Of a stretch of DNA of 33,134 nt, positions 1 to 25,542 are shown piece by piece. This DNA comes from Candidatus Helarchaeota archaeon. Lineage in GTDB: Archaea > Asgardarchaeota > Lokiarchaeia > Helarchaeales > RDOG01. The stretch spans positions 1 through 33,134 of the forward strand of contig JALGVI010000028.1 of assembly GCA_029838215.1 (NCBI GenBank), read 5' to 3'. Each line of letters begins with the position of its first letter. The stretch's first letter is position 1. Both the position numbers and the translations under genes were made by a program. The notes beneath the pieces were generated by a model that worked only from the letters and a program-made list of their open reading frames with translations, was not told the DNA's origin and did not search any database.

Positions 1-2003
1 CCTTTCGGCGGTCCCGTTGGAGGACCTTTCGGTGGACCTTGAAATCCAGACGGTTTCTTTGCCATCAATTTTGCGGCAAGTGCACTCACGGCGGACGTTG
101 AAATCTCCTGCTCTTTAATTTCAATTTTTTTCTTGGTGATTAAAGAGTCGAACCAAATTGCCTCGACTTTTTTCTTGAAGCTGGAAAGAAGCAGGTCTTC
201 GCGCAATTGTTTTGAATTATCGAGATTTTGAATTGATTTTATTAGAGAATCGTCGAAGTTTTTCATTAATGGTTTTAATTTCAAGGTAATCGTCTTTAAT
301 TTCACTTCATATTCTTCTCTCTTGACGTTAATTATTTCGTGAAGCGTGTTAGAGGAGTTTGCAGTTATGATCTTGATCAATGCATCTTGAGTCGTGCCGA
401 GAAGAGTTTCGACGACATTATTTGGAACGATTCTATTCATTTCCAGCTTGTCAAATATCGGGATCTTACCTACCAGAGCCGTTTCTAAGAACTTCATGAA
501 TTCGAACTTGATTTGCTTGAGGATGGGAGCGAGACGTTGATCGGCTTGTGGTGGAATGATTATTTCATCAGCGACTTCAATTTCCTTCGCTTTTTCGATT
601 TTGTCTTCACTTATCTTGCCATAGAGTTCATAAATACCATTTTGGGATAGGTGTTCGATAATACACTCCTTGAATTTTTCGAGGTCGATCTTGACTTTCT
701 TTTTCAAGATGATCTTGGAAATTTCGGTGCCAAGAATGGTAGGGATACCGTTAAAAATTTTTAAAATGTTTAAAAGCCCCGGTTTTTTTTCTTCCATGAT
801 TCGTTTTAAGATCCAATTTGCAAGTTTATCCAGCGATTCCACCAGGAGCTTGATTCCGACGTCTTTTGGTCCTTTCTTCTCCGCACGAGGTATTTCAATT
901 CCCTCGGGTCCAAGCAGGTTTTCGAGTGGTTCGAAAATCATTCCAAACGTTTCCTTGATTTCAGGATGTGCCAATGCCTCTTTGGTATTGTCAGGAAGGA
1001 GATTCACCACTCGAATGATGTTTAGTAAAGTCTGGTTTTGCTCGGGGTCTAGTGGCTTGCCTTTTTTTAGCGCATTCGAGATTTGAGCTATTTTAAAAAA
1101 TAACGATGATTTTTCTTTGATTTTTTGCATTAGTGCTACAAGCTCTTCACGTTTTTCTTCTGAAATGAGTGTTTTCTTTTCTTGGTGTCCGATTACAACG
1201 GCTTCGTTTATGATTTCCTTGACAACTTGAACGATCTCGAGAGATTCTTTCTTCGATATTTCACCTTGTAGCGAGAGGTCGTGTGTCAATTCGAGGCATT
1301 CGGTCATGGTTTTAATGCTTTCGGGTCCGAATGTCATGATCTTGCGTTCTTCATCGAGTCGCGCCTTAACAAATACCCAGCGATCGTATTCTTCGGATTT
1401 TGCTTCGATTTCAGGTTGGATACCGTTCAAAGCCCGGGTTATGCTTTCGGTCTTTTCTTTTAACTTTTGAGAAGTATCTAGAAAAGGGATCAGGAACTTT
1501 GGAGACAAACCCATACTCATTGCCCCGTAATACCGCATATTAAGCCATAATGCCATGAGTTCCGAGATTTTTTTTTGCGAAATTCCCGATTTGGCAGCAA
1601 GCGTCAGGATTTCTTCAGTAACGAAGTCTTCTCGAATGCCCCGTGGGGTTTTTTCCAGAATTTTTTGGCATGTCTTCAATTTTTTTGGCGCAAATATCGT
1701 AAAGAGCTCGAACAGATCCCGTTGAAATTCCAATGCTTTAGCCCTTTCCTCAAGTGGTCGCAAGAATGCATCAGTGGTCTTTAGCTTGTTTTCCACCGCT
1801 ACCATGAATTTTTCAGGTTTCAATGCATGGAACTTCTTCGCCTCTTTTGTCGAGAGGTGCGGAAAAAATCGTCTTGCAAAGTGCTTGAGCTTTAATTTTT
1901 GATACGGCCACGTGACCTCATCCCTGTGAAGGAGAGCTTTGGTAGCTTTCAAATCTTGCTTGATTTTTTCAACTTTCGATAGTTGCTCTTCTTCGACAGC
2001 CAA
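1..2003 (-). CDS. Large hypothetical alpha-helical protein with a proline-rich GPP-repeat C-terminal tail; 3' end lies beyond the window
   Basis: Absent from the ORF track because it has no stop in the window. Manual translation from TTG 2003 (in-frame TGA at 2012-2010, GAGTGA RBS-like) gives MAVEEEQLSKVEKIKQDLK... with no stop through position 3 (~667 codons), ending ...KEPSGFQGPPKGPPTGPPK. Confidence 0.85.
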   Translation of the reverse strand, partial: MAVEEEQLSKVEKIKQDLKATKALLHRDEVTWPYQKLKLKHFARRFFPHLSTKEAKKFHALKPEKFMVAVENKLKTTDAFLRPLEERAKALEFQRDLFELFTIFAPKKLKTCQKILEKTPRGIREDFVTEEILTLAAKSGISQKKISELMALWLNMRYYGAMSMGLSPKFLIPFLDTSQKLKEKTESITRALNGIQPEIEAKSEEYDRWVFVKARLDEERKIMTFGPESIKTMTECLELTHDLSLQGEISKKESLEIVQVVKEIINEAVVIGHQEKKTLISEEKREELVALMQKIKEKSSLFFKIAQISNALKKGKPLDPEQNQTLLNIIRVVNLLPDNTKEALAHPEIKETFGMIFEPLENLLGPEGIEIPRAEKKGPKDVGIKLLVESLDKLANWILKRIMEEKKPGLLNILKIFNGIPTILGTEISKIILKKKVKIDLEKFKECIIEHLSQNGIYELYGKISEDKIEKAKEIEVADEIIIPPQADQRLAPILKQIKFEFMKFLETALVGKIPIFDKLEMNRIVPNNVVETLLGTTQDALIKIITANSSNTLHEIINVKREEYEVKLKTITLKLKPLMKNFDDSLIKSIQNLDNSKQLREDLLLSSFKKKVEAIWFDSLITKKKIEIKEQEISTSAVSALAAKLMAKKPSGFQGPPKGPPTGPPK

Positions 2004-4275: not shown

Positions 4276-6273
4276 CTAAGTCAATTTCACGTTATCCTTC
4301 AGATTGATTCTTGCGAATTCGCTCTTTGTTTTTAAGAATTTGTCTTCTATCTTGATTTTTTGGCTTGACGAGTAAATTTTTGCCTTCCTGAATCGTTTCA
4401 TCGTGATTGTTTCCGGCATCGGTTCTAGATCCCCGATATAAATTTGCTCCCCGGGTTCTCCTTTTATCCTTGCAATTTCCATCTTTTCATTTGAACCCTT
4501 TCCTCCTAGTAGCATGCCTTCGCTTAATATCCCTCCAATCTTTCTTGGTTTAATATTTGTTAACACGACCAAAGGTTCTTGAATTAGCTCTTCCTTTTTA
4601 TAATCGGGTACTAGTTTCGCACAGACGGTAATGATTTTTTCCTTGATATCGATCTTGAGAATATAGAAATCCTTTATTTCGGGATGGATTTCTGCTTCCA
4701 GCACTTTTCCTACTCTAAAATCATACATTTGTAGGGGATTTTTCTTTTTTTCTAACTGCATTTTAGGAAATAATATTTCTTTCTTGCCAATGCGTCCCTT
4801 GGTATCGGTCTTAAAATCAACATTGGAGAAGTCCATCAATGGTTCCAGGCCAATAAAGGTAAACATTTTATCAGAAATCGAAGGGATGAATGGATGAATG
4901 TAAATTGAAATGACTCTTAATGCTTCAACCAGAACGTAGAGTACGGTAGAAAGGCGCTTGATATTTCCGCGTTTTCTTATCTCCCAGGGTTCGGTATCGT
5001 TAATGTATTTGTTGGTATCCCTGATGAATTCCCAAACTCGATCTAACGCTTTATTCAATTGGAAGTTTTCCATGAAATTCCTTAATTGCTCCATGAAATT
5101 GAATTTCCGAATGAATTCCTCATCGATTTTATCAAGGTCATGAAGTGCAGGGATTTCACCGTTGAAGTCGCGTTCGATAAAAGACAAAACCCGTAATATC
5201 AAATTTCCCAACTGGTCAGCCAAAGCACTATTATATGTTTCGATTAAATTATCAACGTTAAATGAACCATCATCGTTTGATGGAATGTTTTTTAATAAAT
5301 AGAAACGGAACGGCGCACTACCATATTTTTCTATCAGGAAAAATGGGTCAATTACATTTCCAAGAGATTTTCCAATTTTTAATCCTTCTAATGTCACGAA
5401 TCCGTGAACGAAAAGATTCTTGGGAACTTTAATGCCTGCAGAAATCAACATGGCAGGCCAATAAATTGCATGAAACTTGATGATATCCTTGCCGATCAGG
5501 TGAACATCTGCGGGCCAAATTGAATTGAACTTGTCCTCATCATATTCATATCCGATGTTGGTGATGTAATTTGACAATGCATCCGCCCAAACGTACATCA
5601 CATGCGAAGGGTCATTGGGCACGGGAATTCCCCATGGCATTTTATTCTTTTGCCGTGAAAAACTCACGTCTGTTAATTCCGACTTTAGAATTGCAAGGAT
5701 TTCTGCTTTTCTTTTTTTAGGAACGATTCTTATTTCATCTTTTTCGTAGATCTCTATCAATCTATTAACATATTTACTTAGATTGAAAAAATAATTTTCT
5801 TCTTCTATTTCAATTAAGGGTCGGTTAGGGTGATAAGGACAAATGCCATCAACCAACTCCTTGGATGTTTTAAAAGATTCGCAACCTATGCAGTAAAAAC
5901 CCTTGTAGGTTGATTTATATAGGTCGCCATTTTCGACCATTTTAAGCCAAAGCTTTGACGCTCCACGCTTGTGTACGGAACTCGTTGTCCTGACATAGTA
6001 ATCATGACTGACATTAAGAATCTTGTAGAGCCTAATAAATTGTTCATGATACTGATTGATGAAATCCTCAACGTTCATTCGACTTTCTTTAGCCGCGTTG
6101 AATATTTTAATGCCGTGTTCATCTGAGCCGGTTTGAAAAACCACGTCTTTAACCAACTGCCTGTAGAAACGAGCAATGCAATCCGCTTGAATTATTTCGA
6201 GAGCATGACCTAAATGCGGGCTACCGTTCAAGTAAGCGATGGCAGTAGTTATGTAAAAATATTTTTTAGACAT
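4276..6273 (-). CDS. metG: Methionyl-tRNA synthetase with C-terminal tRNA-binding OB (Trbp111/EMAPII-like) domain
   Basis: FYITTAIAYLNGSPHLGH (HIGH), TGSDEHG, single Zn knuckle CIGC...CPYH, YVWADAL, IGKDIIKFHAIYWPA, KIGKS (KMSKS), C-terminal FRVGKVLEA...NIKPRKIGGILSEGMLL. Confidence 0.96.
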   Translation of the reverse strand: MSKKYFYITTAIAYLNGSPHLGHALEIIQADCIARFYRQLVKDVVFQTGSDEHGIKIFNAAKESRMNVEDFINQYHEQFIRLYKILNVSHDYYVRTTSSVHKRGASKLWLKMVENGDLYKSTYKGFYCIGCESFKTSKELVDGICPYHPNRPLIEIEEENYFFNLSKYVNRLIEIYEKDEIRIVPKKRKAEILAILKSELTDVSFSRQKNKMPWGIPVPNDPSHVMYVWADALSNYITNIGYEYDEDKFNSIWPADVHLIGKDIIKFHAIYWPAMLISAGIKVPKNLFVHGFVTLEGLKIGKSLGNVIDPFFLIEKYGSAPFRFYLLKNIPSNDDGSFNVDNLIETYNSALADQLGNLILRVLSFIERDFNGEIPALHDLDKIDEEFIRKFNFMEQLRNFMENFQLNKALDRVWEFIRDTNKYINDTEPWEIRKRGNIKRLSTVLYVLVEALRVISIYIHPFIPSISDKMFTFIGLEPLMDFSNVDFKTDTKGRIGKKEILFPKMQLEKKKNPLQMYDFRVGKVLEAEIHPEIKDFYILKIDIKEKIITVCAKLVPDYKKEELIQEPLVVLTNIKPRKIGGILSEGMLLGGKGSNEKMEIARIKGEPGEQIYIGDLEPMPETITMKRFRKAKIYSSSQKIKIEDKFLKTKSEFARINLKDNVKLT

Positions 6274-6341
6274 GTTTTTTACAAATCCGGATGCGTCAAA
6301 CGCCGAATGGCTAAATAGTTAAATATCACACAATTAATAAG

Positions 6342-6503
6342 TGCAGAGGGTGGGGTTTGAACCCACGAACACCTACGTGACAGGATCTTAAGTCCTGCGC
6401 CGCTGGTCAGTAACGACGGCACGCCAGACCCCTGTAGTTCTGCCACGGGTCGCTCCTATTGACCGACTTCGCCAATTCTCGAAGAATTTTTGGCTACCTC
6501 TGC
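6342..6503 (-). tRNA. tRNA-Leu(TAA) with two D-arm introns (6468-6489, 22 nt, position 14/15; 6403-6458, 56 nt, position 21/22)
   Basis: Acceptor GCAGAGG/CCTCTGC, anticodon arm CAGGA-CT-TAA-GA-TCCTG, long variable arm, T loop TTCAAAC. Removing both inserts yields an 84-nt mature tRNA with D arm GCCAAGTCGGTCAACGGC; both inserts are flanked by BHB-type motifs. Confidence 0.85.
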
Positions 6504-6683
6504 CGAGAGGAAATGCTCGGTCTCCTTGACGGAACCCCTGCAAAGATGTCGTGTTGATTGCTTGTAAGCAAGAAATAACCACGCGCAAGTTGATTTTAAA
6601 CGTTTCGTTCTTTCCGCACCACTCAACGCGAAGAAAGCACGAAAGCTAAAATGCCAAAATGAAAAGAAAATTAACAAAAGGAG

Positions 6684-6856
6684 TGCCGGAGGAGGGCTTC
6701 GATCCCTCGATTTCCGGATTTCACGCGCTTCATGAGCATCGGTCATGGGCTAAAAGCCTTTATGAGTCCGGCGCGTGCTCTTCTCGCCCAAAAGAACGAG
6801 AATTCTAACCAGTTGCTCTTTTCAAGGATGCCCTTGAAAACCTAAGCCACTCCGGC
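6684..6856 (-). tRNA. Elongator tRNA-Met(CAT) with three introns (6813-6841 at 15/16; 6775-6803 at 23/24; ~6720-6760 at 37/38 or 38/39)
   Basis: Acceptor GCCGGAG/CTCCGGC, anticodon stem CCGGA/TCCGG. Removing 29+29+41 nt gives the 74-nt GCCGGAGTGGCTTAGCTGGTTAGAGCGCCGGACTCATAATCCGGAAATCGAGGGATCGAAGCCCTCCTCCGGCA; each intron has a BHB-like junction. Confidence 0.87.
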
Positions 6857-6915
6857 ATGACTTGCAATTTCTTTAACCACGAGTCCCATTAAAAATATTT
6901 TGGAATCGCGGAAAA

Positions 6916-6991
6916 TGGAGCCCCTGGAGGGACTTGAACCCTCGACAAACGGCTTACAAGGCCGCCATTCTACCAGCTAAATTACAGAGGC
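6916..6991 (-). tRNA. tRNA-Thr(TGT), intronless, CCA encoded
   Basis: Acceptor GCCTCTG/CAGGGGC, anticodon arm GCGGC-CT-TGT-AA-GCCGT, T loop TTCAAGT, end TCCA. Confidence 0.95.
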
Positions 6992-7015
6992 ACAGCCCAA
7001 TCGAATGAGGCAAGA

Positions 7016-7093
7016 TGGTGGGAGGGGCGTGATTTGAACACGCGATCCCTTGGTCCCAAGCCAAGAATCATAGCCAAGCTAGACCACCCTCCC
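7016..7093 (-). tRNA. tRNA-Pro(TGG), intronless, CCA encoded
   Basis: Acceptor GGGAGGG/CCCTCCC, anticodon arm CTTGG-CT-TGG-GA-CCAAG, T arm GCGTG-TTCAAAT-CACGC, end ACCA. Confidence 0.95.
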
Positions 7094-7138
7094 GTAGGAG
7101 AGCATATTATTACTCCTTACTTCTTGTTTTTTAAAGAC

Positions 7139-7278
7139 TGGTGGGAACGGGGAGATTTGAACTCCCGATAAACGAGTCGCTCCGGTACGCTCCAAAGATA
7201 CATCATCCTTACGTCAGCTAACATCTTCAAAACAGACTCTCTGGAGCCCGTCGTCATACCGTGCTAGACCACGTTCCC
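7139..7278 (-). tRNA. tRNA-Trp(CCA) with a 63-nt canonical 37/38 intron (7178-7240) carrying C/D-like boxes
   Basis: Acceptor GGGAACG/CGTTCCC, anticodon arm ACGGG-CT-CCA-G^A-CTCGT, BHB CTCC-AG^A / GGAG-CG^A, end ACCA. Confidence 0.93.
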
Positions 7279-8880: not shown

Positions 8881-9050
8881 TTTTGGTGGTTGGCAAGGAT
8901 GGAAAAATTGATGTGGTTTGATTTTTTATGCTCTCCGTGTAAATTTTATTAAAAGACATCCAGTTATTTTGAATAAGGACTGGCGCGTTTTAAAATAAGA
9001 ATGAATATATAATTTGAGAACATGAGTGACAAGACAAGGATGGCATAACC

Positions 9051-11603
9051 GTGGGACACAAAGCCCGAACCCCGATGATGATTCAATATTACAAGATAAA
9101 ACGAGAGCATGCGGGATATTTGTTATTGTATCGAATGGGCGACTTTTACGAGACGTTTGATGAAGATGCAGAAACTATTTCGAATGCATTGAATATTGCT
9201 TTGACAAAACGAACGGGGCATGGTGAAAAGTTAGCAGGGATACCTTACCATGCACTTGATAAGTACTTACCCATCTTGATCAAGCAAGGGTACAAGGTGG
9301 CAATTGCCGAGCAAGAGCTCGATCGAGGGAAAAAGGTTTTTGAAAAGATAAATAACACAAAAGTAGTGAAGCGGAAAGTCGTCAGGATCGTAACGGCGGG
9401 CACGCTTTTGGAATCAAGTTTACTCGATGATAAGAAAAATAATTTCCTTGCTGCGATTTTTCGAGAAAAGAATAATATTGGAGTTTCATACGTAGATATT
9501 TCGACAGGAGAATTTTTTCTGACGGAATTTAAGGGTGTTAATTCCAGAATTGCTCTCGTAAGTTTTTTGGCACAATTAGAACCTGCAGAGTTGATCATGC
9601 CTCCGAGCTTGTTTGAGAATAAAGATTTTTACGATTCACTCAAGATCAACCTCAACAGGACGTTGCTTGAGACCTTCGATGAGTTCCGGTTTATTCATGA
9701 TAATGCACGTGATGACTTGTGCGCTCATTTTGGAACGACCTCCCTTGAGGGATTTGGAATAGAGCAGTATCGATTTGGAATAACGGCGGCAGGAGCCATC
9801 TTGCAGTATTTAAAAGAGACTCAAAAGAGTCAATTATCGAACATCACGTCATTGCGATTACATGTTAATAAAGATTATATGATGATTGATGCGGCGACTT
9901 TAAAGAATCTTGAGATAATGCAAAACATCATTGATGGGTCTTCAAGGGGCACGCTTCTCGAGATTTTTGATCATGCCATCACGCCGATGGGATCGCGACT
10001 CTTGCGGCGTTGGCTTCAACAACCTTTAACAGTTGTTGAAAGGATCGAACACCGTTTATCAGCTGTTGAAGAATTATTTAATAACATGTTGCTCAGAGAA
10101 GACATTAGGGAGATATTAAAGCAAGTACATGATATTGAGCGGTTGATAAGCAGGGTAAGCTATGGTAGTGCAAATGCGCGTGATTTAGTTGCGCTTAAAA
10201 ATTCCTTAAAAATCGTGCCACAAATTAAAAAGTTACTGAAGCCAGATGCCTCAATGTTGAAAGAAATTGTCAGTGAGCTTCAAGAGTTACCTGAGATTGT
10301 AGATCTCATTGAGCGAATGATCGTTGATAATCCGCCATTAACCTTGCACGATGGAGGATTAATCAAGCCGGGCAATCATGAGGAATTGGACGAGCTTAGA
10401 GAAATAAGTACAAATACCAAGAAAATCATGACGAAATTGGAGGATGAAGAAAAAAGAAAGACTGGCATTAAGAATTTGAAGATTCGATACAATCGCGTGT
10501 TTGGGTACTATATTGAAGTCACGAATTCCTACAAACATCTCGTTCCAAAAGATCGATACATCCGAAAGCAAACTCTTGCTAATGCCGAACGTTATTTCAC
10601 ATCAGAGTTGAAGGAGTTTGAAGCCAAAATATTGAGTGCCGATGAAAAGATCAAGGCGTTGGAACATGAGTTATTCCTTCAGACTTTGAATCGTATCAAG
10701 GAAAAAATCGTTCACGTTCAGAAAATCGCCGGTGGATTGGCCAAGTTAGACGTCCTGAGTACATTTGCCGAGGTTGCAAAGCATAATGATTACGTGCGTC
10801 CCGACATCAATGACAAAGAACAAATATTAATCAAGGGTGGTCGACATCCCGTCGTGGAGCACCTCGTGTCGACAGAGCGTTTCATTCCTAATGACACTTT
10901 ATTGGAACCGAAGGCAAACCAGGTGATCCTTTTAACCGGGCCAAATATGGCAGGAAAGAGTACATACATTCGACAAGTGGCGTTGATTACCTTGCTTGCC
11001 CACATTGGTAGCTTTATTCCGGCAAGAAAAGCATCCATATGTATCGTAGATAGGATTTTTTCAAGGATTGGAGCGTTTGATGATTTAACAAAGCAGCGAA
11101 GCACTTTTATGGTTGAAATGAATGAAACTGCGAATATAATTAATAATGCTTCACGTAATAGTCTCGTGATATTAGATGAATTAGGGCGTGGAACCTCGAC
11201 ATTTGATGGATTGAGCATTGCTTGGTCGGTAATTGAACACTTGCACGATAAAATTAAATGCAAGACTCTTTTTGCCACGCATTACCATCAATTAATCGAG
11301 TTGGAGAATTATTTACCGCGAGTGAAGAATTATCACATTCAAATTCGGGAAATAGGTGATGACATCTTCTTTCTTCGCAAGATTGAGCGGGGTGGTTCCG
11401 ATAAAAGTTTTGGAATTCACGTTGCGAAACTGGCAGGATTACCAGCGCGTGTCATTCAGCGTGCAAAAGCCATTTTAGAAAAATTGGAAGATGGCGATCC
11501 TGTTTCCACGCACATTCCTTTAAAAGTACCATCGCAAAAGATAAAAAGGGAAGAGAAAAAAGGTAGAAAGAAGCGAGTTCTTCAACAAACGTTATTTGAA
11601 TAG
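9051..11603 (+). CDS. mutS: DNA mismatch repair protein MutS (MutS1)
   Basis: TPMMIQYYKIK, YRMGDFYETF (G-x-F-Y-E), Walker A TGPNMAGKSTY, STFMVEM, ILDELGRGTSTFDG, FATHY, SFGIHVAKLAG. Confidence 0.97.
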   Translation: MGHKARTPMMIQYYKIKREHAGYLLLYRMGDFYETFDEDAETISNALNIALTKRTGHGEKLAGIPYHALDKYLPILIKQGYKVAIAEQELDRGKKVFEKINNTKVVKRKVVRIVTAGTLLESSLLDDKKNNFLAAIFREKNNIGVSYVDISTGEFFLTEFKGVNSRIALVSFLAQLEPAELIMPPSLFENKDFYDSLKINLNRTLLETFDEFRFIHDNARDDLCAHFGTTSLEGFGIEQYRFGITAAGAILQYLKETQKSQLSNITSLRLHVNKDYMMIDAATLKNLEIMQNIIDGSSRGTLLEIFDHAITPMGSRLLRRWLQQPLTVVERIEHRLSAVEELFNNMLLREDIREILKQVHDIERLISRVSYGSANARDLVALKNSLKIVPQIKKLLKPDASMLKEIVSELQELPEIVDLIERMIVDNPPLTLHDGGLIKPGNHEELDELREISTNTKKIMTKLEDEEKRKTGIKNLKIRYNRVFGYYIEVTNSYKHLVPKDRYIRKQTLANAERYFTSELKEFEAKILSADEKIKALEHELFLQTLNRIKEKIVHVQKIAGGLAKLDVLSTFAEVAKHNDYVRPDINDKEQILIKGGRHPVVEHLVSTERFIPNDTLLEPKANQVILLTGPNMAGKSTYIRQVALITLLAHIGSFIPARKASICIVDRIFSRIGAFDDLTKQRSTFMVEMNETANIINNASRNSLVILDELGRGTSTFDGLSIAWSVIEHLHDKIKCKTLFATHYHQLIELENYLPRVKNYHIQIREIGDDIFFLRKIERGGSDKSFGIHVAKLAGLPARVIQRAKAILEKLEDGDPVSTHIPLKVPSQKIKREEKKGRKKRVLQQTLFE

Positions 11604-11650
11604 AATTACAAAAAAGAAAGAAATTAAACGTGTTAGATGCGTGAGAAAAA

Positions 11651-11791
11651 ATGAACGGCGATAGCAAATGCGTTTTATTTGAAACAGCTCTAAATGCTTG
11701 TGGAGTCACGGGAAAGCCTTGTGACAAAAAAACCGAGGAAGAAATCAAGAATTGTGAAGTTAAGAAGGGCATGTATGAGGAACTGGTATGA
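11651..11791 (+). CDS. Small 46-aa four-Cys protein between mutS and mutL
   Basis: Manual translation MNGDSKCVLFETALNACGVTGKPCDKKTEEEIKNCEVKKGMYEELV*. Fills the mutS-mutL gap in the same orientation; GTGAG upstream. Below the track's size cutoff. Confidence 0.55.
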   Translation: MNGDSKCVLFETALNACGVTGKPCDKKTEEEIKNCEVKKGMYEELV

Positions 11792-11834
11792 AAATCCTTC
11801 CGTTGAGTGAAAGCAAAAAACGGAGATAAAATAA

Positions 11835-13637
11835 GTGGAACAGGCTGAAAAGATCAAATTCTTAGATGAAAGAGTAATAAATAAGATTGCAGCGGGAGAA
11901 GTCATTGAACATCCGGGATCTGTGGTAAAGGAGCTCGTTGAAAATTCCATCGATGCGGGTGCAAGTTCAATTCGAGTTGAAGTTCGGAATGGGGGAAAGG
12001 ATTACATTAAGGTCAGCGATGATGGAGAAGGAATGAACCGTAATGATGCGCAATTATCGTTTCAAAGACATACCACCAGCAAGCTTAAAGAAATTGAAGA
12101 TTTGCAAAACATAAGAACTCTGGGATTTCGTGGAGAAGCACTTTCAAGTATCACTTCTGTTGCTCGTGTAGTGATTGAAACCAAGACGGATGTAGATCAG
12201 ATTGGCACTAAGCTCATCATAGAAGGAGGCACGTTGCAAGAAACACGAGATACTTCAGGTTTCACGGGAACTTCAATTGAAGTCAGGGATTTATTTTTTA
12301 ACGTGCCTGTTCGCCGTAAGTATTTAAAATCCCGGGAGGCGGAATTATCAAGGGTAACAGAAGTGCTGAGGAATTATGCGCTAATTCATCCTGAGATTTC
12401 ATTTCGTCTCATTCATGAATCTAAAGAAGTTCTTTTTACGCCGAAGTCGACGGGTGCAATTGAGAGCCTGACTTATCTTGAAACCATATCACATGTTTTA
12501 GGCAAATCAATTGCACGCGAAATGGTTCCGATAAATGCATCCACGCCTCATTTTTCTGTAGTTGGCTACATTTCAAAACCAAACATCTCGCGTAGAAATA
12601 CAAGCCTTCAATATCTTTTCGTGAACGGACGAAGCATAAAATCCAAGCTCATTTCGAATGCACTACGAGAAGCTTACGGGACGTTACTTTTTCCAAAAGA
12701 CCATCCAATTGTCATTTTATCGTTTGATTTTGATCCCGCATTGATCGATGTTAACATACATCCAACTAAAAGAGAAATTCGTTTCCTTGAAGAAGATGCC
12801 GTTCAAGAATTCCTTCGGGACATCATTCAAGATAAATTGAGAAAAATGAACATCATTCCCGTTATTGAGGAGCGATTGGAAACACCTGTAAGAAAGGCTT
12901 CACCGAGCCCCCAAGATGTAGCGAAAGTACGCAAGTCTCTTACATTGAGTTCCGTGCTTGAAGAATCCGTAGAAGATTTGGTCTCTTCTGCAAGAAGAGA
13001 CAATAAAAAGCGGGATGTCGTGGAGGTAAGTGAGCAATTTTCGGATGTAAAAATACCCAAAATGTATTTCGTGGGACAGTTTCATAATACTTATTTGTTA
13101 ATGCAAGATGAAACTAATCTTTACATGATTGATCAACATGCTGCCGCCGAACGCATAACGTATGAGAAATTGCTAACAAAAATGAAATCGAGACCCCTTC
13201 AAATGCAACAATTATTAGCACCCATTACTTTTGAACTCAGTCCTAAAGAGTCCAAACTCCTTCAAGCGACAGGCATACTTGAACGGCTTAAACATTTTGG
13301 TTTTGACATTTCACATTTTGGCGGAAATACCTTTCTAATTCGAAGCGTTCCCGTAGTTTTTGGCACGAATCTTGATGAGAAAGTTATTTTAGAATTCTTG
13401 CATTCTCTTGAATTAGGAAAGAAAGAATTCAAGAGCGATCTTCAAGATGAGATTATCAAACTGATGGCTTGTCATTCTTCCATTCGAGCGGGAGAACCGC
13501 TTTCAGAAATTCAGGCACTTAAACTAATTAGCGAGTTAAGAAAATGTAAAAATCCTTATAATTGTCCCCATGGAAGGCCAACTATCATCAATTTTTCCGT
13601 GAAATTTCTTGAGAAGAAGTTTAAGAGAATCGTTTAA
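11835..13637 (+). CDS. mutL: DNA mismatch repair endonuclease MutL
   Basis: GHKL motifs KIAAGEVIE, KELVENSIDAG, TLGFRGEAL; C-terminal endonuclease motifs DQHAAAERITYE, ACH, CPHGRP. Confidence 0.97.
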   Translation: MEQAEKIKFLDERVINKIAAGEVIEHPGSVVKELVENSIDAGASSIRVEVRNGGKDYIKVSDDGEGMNRNDAQLSFQRHTTSKLKEIEDLQNIRTLGFRGEALSSITSVARVVIETKTDVDQIGTKLIIEGGTLQETRDTSGFTGTSIEVRDLFFNVPVRRKYLKSREAELSRVTEVLRNYALIHPEISFRLIHESKEVLFTPKSTGAIESLTYLETISHVLGKSIAREMVPINASTPHFSVVGYISKPNISRRNTSLQYLFVNGRSIKSKLISNALREAYGTLLFPKDHPIVILSFDFDPALIDVNIHPTKREIRFLEEDAVQEFLRDIIQDKLRKMNIIPVIEERLETPVRKASPSPQDVAKVRKSLTLSSVLEESVEDLVSSARRDNKKRDVVEVSEQFSDVKIPKMYFVGQFHNTYLLMQDETNLYMIDQHAAAERITYEKLLTKMKSRPLQMQQLLAPITFELSPKESKLLQATGILERLKHFGFDISHFGGNTFLIRSVPVVFGTNLDEKVILEFLHSLELGKKEFKSDLQDEIIKLMACHSSIRAGEPLSEIQALKLISELRKCKNPYNCPHGRPTIINFSVKFLEKKFKRIV

Positions 13638-24477: not shown

Positions 24478-24513
24478 CATTAATTGCGAGTAAAAAGAGA
24501 TTTTAGGTTGAAA

Positions 24514-25542
24514 TTGATGGCAGATCGGTATGCGTTTGACCTTCCTAAGGAATTTATTGCACAGAAACCATTAGAAAAACGAGATCAATCGAATCTAATG
24601 GAATGGAAGGAAGGTAAAATCATGCATCGCAAGTTTTATCAATTGAAGGATTATTTTCAGCGAAATGACGTTCTCGTTTTGAATGATTCTCGCGTGTTGT
24701 CAAACCTGCTTGAAGGAAGGAAGGTTTCGGGGGGAAGAATCCGTCTATTATGCCTGCAAGAAGTCGATGATGCAAGATGGGAATGCTTGGTAATGGGCAA
24801 GAGAATTCGAGAGGGATTGAAATTTATCATTGGAGACGGATCTCTTGAGGGGACCTTGGAAAAGCAGATACTTGAAGGGAGATTTATCGTTCAATTTGAT
24901 GGACAAATTGGTTTTCGAAAAGCACTTGAAGAATTTGGTTCCGTCCCCTTACCGGAATACATCGAGGATATAAGTCCATCCTTTGATTTTGAGCGATATC
25001 AGACATGTTTTGGCATGAAGGAAGGTTCGATAGCGGCACCTACGGCAGGGTTGCATTTTTCCAAGACACTGCTGGAAGACTTGAAATCACGAGATGTTAA
25101 AATTCGGTTCATAACGCTTCACATCAGTATAGGAACGATTCTAAGAATAAAAACAGGAGATCTTTCAAGTCATAAGATGTATCCGGAATTTGTCCATGTT
25201 TCTTCTTCTGTAGCGGACGTGATTAATCAGGCAAGGGCGGATGGTAGGCGAATTTTCGTGGTTGGAACCACCTGTTTGAAAGCACTCGAATGTGCCGCAG
25301 ATGACGCGGGAATTCTCCATTCATTTGAGGGAGATACAGATTTATTTATTTATCCGGGATACCGGTTCAAATTTCAGCCTGACGCGTTCATTACGAATTT
25401 TCACTTGCCGAAATCAGCCCCATTATTAATGACCGTTGCGTTAATAGGATGGGAAAGAATTCAAGAGATGTACGAAGAAGCCAAGCGGAAAAAATATAGA
25501 TTTTATAGTTTCGGAGATGCAATGATCTACTTTCGGACTTGA
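24514..25542 (+). CDS. queA: S-adenosylmethionine:tRNA ribosyltransferase-isomerase QueA
   Basis: FDLPKEFIAQKP, VLVLNDSRV, PLPEYI, RYQT, GSIAAPTAGLHF, VGTT, TNFHLPKS, YRFYSFGDAM. Start uncertain (TTG 24484, TTG 24514 or ATG 24517). Confidence 0.95.
   Translation: MMADRYAFDLPKEFIAQKPLEKRDQSNLMEWKEGKIMHRKFYQLKDYFQRNDVLVLNDSRVLSNLLEGRKVSGGRIRLLCLQEVDDARWECLVMGKRIREGLKFIIGDGSLEGTLEKQILEGRFIVQFDGQIGFRKALEEFGSVPLPEYIEDISPSFDFERYQTCFGMKEGSIAAPTAGLHFSKTLLEDLKSRDVKIRFITLHISIGTILRIKTGDLSSHKMYPEFVHVSSSVADVINQARADGRRIFVVGTTCLKALECAADDAGILHSFEGDTDLFIYPGYRFKFQPDAFITNFHLPKSAPLLMTVALIGWERIQEMYEEAKRKKYRFYSFGDAMIYFRT

Follow-up and report, generated by a model that had tools for sequence, protein, structure and literature searches.

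Transfer RNA genes with several introns have been described in Asgard archaea. In three complete Asgard genomes, 92-95% of the tRNA genes carried introns and over half carried several, often at non-canonical sites (Valentin-Alvarado 2024, PMC11291895). A later count gave 2.2 inserts per gene for the richest families, with a maximum of five in a single gene, the D-arm inserts being routinely missed by tRNAscan-SE (Goswami 2026, bioRxiv 10.64898/2026.10.13.758758). In the same preprint a strict bulge-helix-bulge (BHB) motif was present at 35-60% of the boundaries, and no route by which introns generally arrive was found. Besides, a tRNA-splicing endonuclease (EndA) of (alpha-beta)2 type with an L1 loop has been reported for Asgard archaea and linked to the cleavage of relaxed non-canonical motifs (PMC5829648). 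There are two further systems of reference, the Thermoproteales, in which a tRNA may contain as many as three BHB introns, located at non-canonical sites (Sugahara et al. 2008, as cited in PMC11291895), and the canonical 37/38 intron, whose hBHBh' motif is strict (Marck and Grosjean 2003, cited in PMC11291895). The initial annotation of the gene described here regarded triple-intron tRNAs as rare and mainly a matter of Thermoproteales, a view that the multi-intron genes of both Asgard studies have made outdated.

We have analyzed a tRNA gene located on the minus strand of the window, i.e. the whole stretch of 33,134 nt under study. It is a genuine elongator tRNA-Met(CAU) gene of 173 nt, composed of four exons and three introns of the BHB type. 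Its parts are given below in window coordinates, together with a precursor numbering in which 1 is window position 6856.

6856..6684, minus strand: tRNA-Met(CAT) gene, 173 nt
6842..6856, precursor 1-15, minus strand: exon 1, tRNA positions 1-15, with the acceptor 5' strand GCCGGAG, U8 G9, the D-stem 5' strand GCUU and A14 G15
6813..6841, precursor 16-44, minus strand: intron 1, 29 nt, at 15/16, strict BHB
6804..6812, precursor 45-53, minus strand: exon 2, 9 nt, tRNA positions 16-23, CUGGUUAGA, with G18 G19 of the D-loop and G22 A23
6775..6803, precursor 54-82, minus strand: intron 2, 29 nt, at 23/24, relaxed BHB
6760..6774, precursor 83-97, minus strand: exon 3, tRNA positions 24-38, with G24 C25 G26, the anticodon-stem 5' strand CCGGA and the loop CUCAUAA (anticodon CAU)
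6719..6759, precursor 98-138, minus strand: intron 3, 41 nt, in the anticodon loop with 38/39 geometry, relaxed BHB
6684..6718, precursor 139-173, minus strand: exon 4, tRNA positions 39-73, with UCCGG, the variable loop AAAUC, the T-arm GAGGG-AUCGAAG-CCCUC, CUCCGGC and A73

The three introns that the initial annotation placed at 15/16, 23/24 and in the anticodon loop, and its count of 99 intronic nucleotides among the 173 (29 + 29 + 41), agree with this delimitation. The exons (15, 9, 15 and 35 nt) add up to a spliced product of 74 nt, without an encoded CCA at the end of exon 4. This 74-mer was called tRNA-Met(cat) by ARAGORN, as expected from the earlier claim that exact removal of the introns restores a canonical elongator tRNA-Met. 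The spliced cloverleaf has a 7-bp acceptor stem, the D-arm GCUU-AGCUGGUUA-GAGC (complete, GCUUAGCUGGUUAGAGC), the anticodon arm CCGGA-CUCAUAA-UCCGG, a 5-nt variable loop and a 5-bp T-stem. The T-loop AUCGAAG is unusual for its A54 and G60; A54 is also found in the tRNA-Thr(GGU) of the window, and the end of the loop, ...CGAAG, in the tRNA-Ile(GAU) of the genome.

The gene stands in a row of tRNA genes on the same strand (minus, 4276-7278) that ends with metG:

7139-7278, minus strand: intron-bearing tRNA, Trp(CCA) with a 63-nt intron according to ARAGORN
7016-7093, minus strand: tRNA-Pro(TGG)
6916-6991, minus strand: tRNA-Thr(TGT)
6342-6503, minus strand: further split tRNA, of which the acceptor and the T-arm were found
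4276..6273, minus strand: metG, methionyl-tRNA synthetase, 665 aa (PF09334, E = 7e-101)

The rest of the window contains two other regions with a bacterial flavor. At 9051-13637 (plus strand) a full-length MutS of bacterial type, containing the five MutS domains, precedes MutL. Its best-matching relatives in our genome collection were bacteria, at no more than 50% identity, which suggests an old transfer into the archaeon. The archaeon also has a QueA-family gene at 24484-25542 (plus strand; PF02547, E = 5e-104); the synthesis of queuosine is normally a bacterial trait. The host genome itself is Asgard-like, as the initial annotation had proposed, with an actin match of 440.8 bits that was found in none of four archaeal control genomes.

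Standard tools do not see the tRNA-Met gene. The unspliced sequence was missed by ARAGORN, even when long introns were allowed, and by Rfam at E values up to 10; both the neighboring tRNA-Thr and tRNA-Pro and one intron-bearing tRNA are called. Apart from the initiator, this is the sole CAU tRNA that we found in the genome (94% complete), and an automatic annotation would list the elongator tRNA-Met gene as missing. Over the whole genome (3.6 Mb) ARAGORN gave 33 tRNA genes, 18 of them with an intron. Several were mislabeled, the initiator as Ser and two tRNA-Gln-like genes with A1:U72 as Asn and Leu, so that the automatic tRNA annotation of this genome is unreliable.

The helices listed in the initial annotation, GCTT/GAGC, GTTA/GAGC (with one mismatch) and TCAT/GTGA, were all present at the boundaries with their 3-nt bulges. 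Specifically, intron 1 has a central helix GCUU/GAGC with 4/4 pairs, the bulges AGG and AAC, and a 9-bp inner helix closed by a GCAU loop. In intron 2 the central helix GUUA/GAGC has 3/4 pairs (the fourth is an A x G mismatch), the bulges are GAA and ACG, and the inner and outer helices have 9 and 2 bp. Intron 3 has a central helix UCAU/GUGA with 4/4 pairs, including one G-U, bulges AAA and AAU, and weak flanks (1 and 0 bp in the strict register, with the anticodon stem offset by one base). The components of a BHB intron, i.e. a 4-bp central helix, two 3-nt bulges and at least one flank, are therefore found in strict form in intron 1 and in relaxed form in introns 2 and 3. The textbook site of the archaeal anticodon-loop intron is 37/38, and intron 3 has the geometry of 38/39. 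As U39 forms part of its 3' bulge, the motif requires the opening of the 31-39 pair. The run of A at this intron makes cut sites from 36/37 to 38/39 yield the same product, and a gap at 96-136 is equivalent to one at 98-138.

The boundaries were also located with an intron-aware aligner ignorant of the BHB motif, using the contiguous genomic DNA of the orthologs in the genomes G057 (41 nt) and G035 (45 nt). This motif-free alignment placed the gaps at 16-44, 54-82 and 96-136. Shifting the boundaries of introns 1 and 2 by up to 4 nt in either direction gives the best BHB at a shift of 0/0, exactly at the motif-free positions. As a reference for the chance level, only 37 of the 10,240 boundary pairs within the gene (0.36%) reach four central pairs and a flank of at least 3 bp. 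Cutting after the second base of the bulge and joining the ends produces a canonical cloverleaf, according to both ARAGORN and the uninterrupted orthologs. The spliced D-arm and anticodon loop match those of the latter; actually, the uninterrupted D-arm GCTTAGCTGGTTATAGC of class-level orthologs is one base away from the spliced D-arm found here.

Archaea normally have three CAU tRNAs, one of them being tRNA-Ile2, which is modified by TiaS (C34 to agmatidine) and reads AUA. We searched for a third one by a scan of stem, T-arm and acceptor, and the real cases were two, the initiator and the gene described here; an Rfam tRNA search of the whole genome gave no hidden CAU tRNA. The initiator, with A1:U72 and an anticodon stem containing three G-C pairs, is encoded separately on contig C23. 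This count of two leaves a place for a tRNA-Ile2(CAU), i.e. an AUA reader with agmatidine that would not be a methionine tRNA, and the T-loop end ...CGAAG, common to the tRNA-Ile(GAU) of this genome and of G002, could point in the same direction. However, we consider this identity very improbable. The TiaS domain (PF08489) was detected in none of 61 genomes (this one, 94.3% complete, plus 60 relatives of the same class), while the four archaeal control genomes were all positive. Besides, AUA has a decoder of its own, since a tRNA-Ile(UAU) gene with the loop CU-UAU-A is present outside the window:

C102:5136-5321, plus strand: tRNA-Ile(UAU)

Thus, neither a host TiaS nor a lack of other AUA decoders, the two hallmarks of an agmatidine-type tRNA-Ile2, was found. 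With no TiaS in the 61 genomes and a tRNA-Ile(UAU), decoding of AUA would be of the eukaryote type instead of the agmatidine type. This tRNA-Ile(UAU) gene is itself apparently split by three inserts, in the D-loop, the anticodon loop and the T-loop. If our gene were tRNA-Ile2, the genome would have no elongator tRNA-Met. Moreover, the acceptor stem GCCGGNG is unlike the GGUUCCG of tRNA-Ile(GAU), and metG adjoins (410 nt downstream on the same strand), a context that fits a Met identity. The gene has the anticodon CAU, G1:C72 where the initiator has A1:U72, and the discriminator A73. Given that no TiaS was found, that a tRNA-Ile(UAU) and a separate initiator are present and that metG is adjoining, the tRNA is elongator tRNA-Met rather than tRNA-Ile2.

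We have also considered that the inserts were assembly errors, or the gene a decaying pseudogene, with the working tRNA-Met encoded in the unassembled 6% of the genome. The assembly is a draft of 170 contigs, 94.3% complete and 6.2% contaminated, standard tools fail to call the gene, and the motifs of introns 2 and 3 are imperfect, all of which would be compatible with such an explanation. However, the identical 173 nt, inside an identical stretch of 1000 nt, also occur in JGI metagenome data, in two contigs that come from two samples and were assembled separately; these may share their sampling campaign with the genome itself. A Logan contig of 243 nt covers 6579-6821 with zero differences; in the three DNA contig sets compared, the other matches were pieces of tRNAs of other organisms. 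Among the sequencing runs found to contain the stretch there was no RNA run. The presence of the same sequence in two JGI contigs and in the Logan contig makes an assembly artefact unlikely. Decay does not fit either. The orthologs of G001, G003 and G005 carry introns at the same sites whose sequences differ while the helices are kept, and the stems of the spliced product are all intact and covary. Over 20 orthologs every acceptor pair was preserved, pair 6:67 appearing as A-U, G-C, U-A and C-G, and pair 5:68 as G-C and A-U; the T-stem pair 50:64 was A-U, C-G or U-A. These compensatory changes between exon 1 and exon 4, 157 nt apart here, indicate that the separated exons evolve as one tRNA. 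We regard error or decay as extremely improbable, and the genuine gene as the explanation to retain.

The genome encodes the enzymes that such a gene would need. There are two EndA paralogs. The one on contig C168 (C168:14184-14756, 190 aa) is most similar to the alpha subunits, the catalytic ones, of the Aeropyrum pernix and Sulfolobus tokodaii enzymes (E = 5e-48). Its Tyr, His and Lys are retained, and it has the inserted broad-specificity loop with its Lys (...IRKPKNAEF...). The paralog on contig C1 (C1:87093-87752, 219 aa) aligns with the enzyme of M. jannaschii, has Thr at the position of the catalytic His, and also matches weakly the crenarchaeal beta subunits. The ligase RtcB was found with 577 bits. 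At the gene level, the host is thus equipped with an endonuclease for non-canonical sites, including the loop Lys, and with RtcB. The two paralogs most likely correspond to the (alpha-beta)2 type with an L1 loop, subunit assembly and activity being predictions.

We infer the splicing of the precursor, as well as the order of the cuts, along the following lines. The gene would be transcribed as a 173-nt precursor core, in which each intron would fold with the neighboring exon bases into a BHB. The splicing endonuclease, most likely an (alpha-beta)2 heterotetramer with the broad-specificity loop, would excise the three introns, with a cut behind the second nucleotide of every 3-nt bulge. The ligase RtcB would then join the exons of 15, 9, 15 and 35 nt into the 74-nt tRNA, and CCA would be added after exon joining. 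Taking everything together, we hold it very probable that this is a functional elongator tRNA-Met gene whose introns are removed by EndA and whose exons are ligated by RtcB.

The initial annotation had suggested ordered splicing on the grounds that two introns compete for the strands of the D-stem. This does not stand. In intron 1, the GCUU of the D-stem 5' strand finds its partner in a GAGC within that intron, and in intron 2 the GUUA of the D-loop is likewise matched by a GAGC belonging to the intron itself. The true 3' strand of the D-stem, GA+GC, is created only once exons 2 and 3 are joined. A fixed order could still be at work for other causes, or the two 29-nt D-arm introns could be copies of each other, so that the gene would hold a mechanistic oddity and not two ordinary introns. 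We consider this unlikely, even if there are several data in its favor. In the folding ensemble the central helix of intron 1 has a probability of about 0.67 and its inner helix of 0.8-1.0. For introns 2 and 3 the central helices stay at p < 0.01, and a competing 6-bp helix, ACGCGC (81-86) with GCGCGU (129-134), reaches p of about 0.85. In silico this helix occludes the 3' site of intron 2 as well as the central helix of intron 3, and a 5-bp version of it is possible in G001 (by eye). Besides, a strict BHB across 16..82, with 4 central pairs, an inner helix of 5 bp and an outer helix of 3 bp, arises when the 5' site of the first intron is combined with the 3' site of the second; cutting there would lose exon 2. 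Against a mandatory order, all three BHB motifs fit in one structure at -62.3 kcal/mol, compared with -68.4 for the minimum free energy (MFE) fold, and the exon-skipping fold lies 23.6 kcal/mol above the MFE, with a probability of 0.000.

Regarding the resemblance of the D-arm introns, both follow the same plan of 29 nt (a 9-bp stem with a loop of 4 nt, preceded by 1 nt and followed by GAGC, A and 1 nt), and their global alignment was better than 98% of shuffles (p = 0.02). However, outside the GAGCA tail the hairpins share 9/22 identities, a value reached by 31% of random hairpins of like composition (P = 0.31), and the D-arm introns of G001 are unalike (p = 0.62). With these numbers we have discarded a twin-intron duplication as unsupported. 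It is quite unlikely that the D-arm introns are related by intragenic copying, in which an intron, once excised, would have inserted again into its own precursor, at another BHB-like site, leaving cross-compatible sites that would permit the skipping of exon 2. Were it true, it would provide a concrete route of intron arrival, one that the 2026 census did not find, and correct maturation would hinge on folding during transcription or on cuts made in a fixed sequence. The reading of two ordinary D-arm introns is the one that we follow.

The comparison with relatives allowed us to place the introns in time. In orthologs at the class level the number of introns is 1-2 and the D-arm is uninterrupted, whereas orthologs of the same family or order have 2-4, in line with the proliferation of introns in an Asgard lineage that the initial annotation had put forward. 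Many of the class-level orthologs carry an anticodon-loop intron with the same 38/39 geometry based on UCAU (for example G011 and G045, and also G003 and G005 in the same order); in some the intron is at about 32/33 instead, and some have an additional T-loop intron. Within the order, G003 has two introns, one in the D-arm (at about 23/24) and one in the anticodon loop, and G005 has introns at about 23/24, in the anticodon loop, near 14/15 and in the acceptor 3' strand at 68/69 (CGCC/GGCG, 4/4 pairs). For the D-arm introns of G003 and G005 no BHB register yields a clean D-stem, and their boundaries are approximate. In the same family, G001 has introns at 15/16, 23/24 and 38/39, and one in the T-loop (UCCG/CGGA, 4/4 pairs, outer helix of 5 bp). 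Intron 2 of our genome is homologous to intron 2 of G001, with 21 identities and none of 2000 shuffles as good, and between the two there are paired changes in the inner helix, e.g. C-G to U-A (by eye). This distribution indicates that the intron load grew stepwise in the order. We have in this way an evolutionary series for a single gene, with the 38/39 intron class-wide in many genomes, the one at 23/24 within the order and the one at 15/16 within the family, while relatives gained further introns in the T-loop or the acceptor stem.

Some of these introns contain conserved elements. The D-arm introns of the orthologs in G003 (C169, locus L003, about 8929-9100, minus strand) and in G005 (C191, locus L004, about 480-650) contain CCAUGAUGA, then 4 nt and (G/A)UGACC. 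From its sequence, this element resembles a C-box/D-box or kink-turn and might bind L7Ae. Nothing similar was observed in the introns of the window; a C/D-box or K-turn element was looked for in intron 3 and rejected, the boxes being unconvincing by eye. In the class-level loci L035-L051, the anticodon-region intron keeps a GGGUCAGA(C) block in many genera, even though the rest of the intron varies, including its position (38/39 or about 32/33).

Asgard tRNA genes with heavy interruption are already published, and the tRNA-Met described here is consequently one more example. Taken alone the gene matters little, but it adds a fully worked case to the known phenomenon. Since a single RNA here combines three kinds of motif (strict, mismatched and relaxed), it would be a suitable substrate to examine which sites an Asgard splicing endonuclease accepts. 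The resemblance to the Asgard multi-intron genes starts with an Asgard-like host and three inserts, two of them in the D-arm. The inserts are short and multiple, with lengths near the reported medians of 22-23 nt, those in the D-arm are missed by the tools, the BHB motifs are partly relaxed, the gains are lineage-specific and EndA has two paralogs. The stepwise growth agrees with the picture of repeated gain drawn in the preprint (Goswami 2026). Both Asgard papers center on Atabeyarchaeia, Freyarchaeia and Jordiarchaeia, and the main text of the preprint does not mention Helarchaeales, Lokiarchaeia or this tRNA-Met; in comparison with them, we have dealt with a single gene and resolved its splice sites and orthologs one by one.

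As in Thermoproteales, there are up to three BHB introns at non-canonical sites and the host has an EndA with a specific loop and most likely of (alpha-beta)2 type (PMC5829648), albeit in a different phylum. Near-identical introns shared between tRNA genes (families at 80% identity or more) amount to 28% in Thermoproteales and 1.5% in Asgard archaea, and here too, unlike in Thermoproteales, we found no convincing intron copying. With the canonical 37/38 intron the gene shares the 4-bp central helix that includes anticodon bases, the two 3-nt bulges and the cut after the second bulge base. It differs in that intron 3 is shifted by one position (38/39), is devoid of an inner helix and opens the 31-39 pair, and in that the D-arm introns 1 and 2 use the D-stem 5' strand or the D-loop together with an intronic GAGC.
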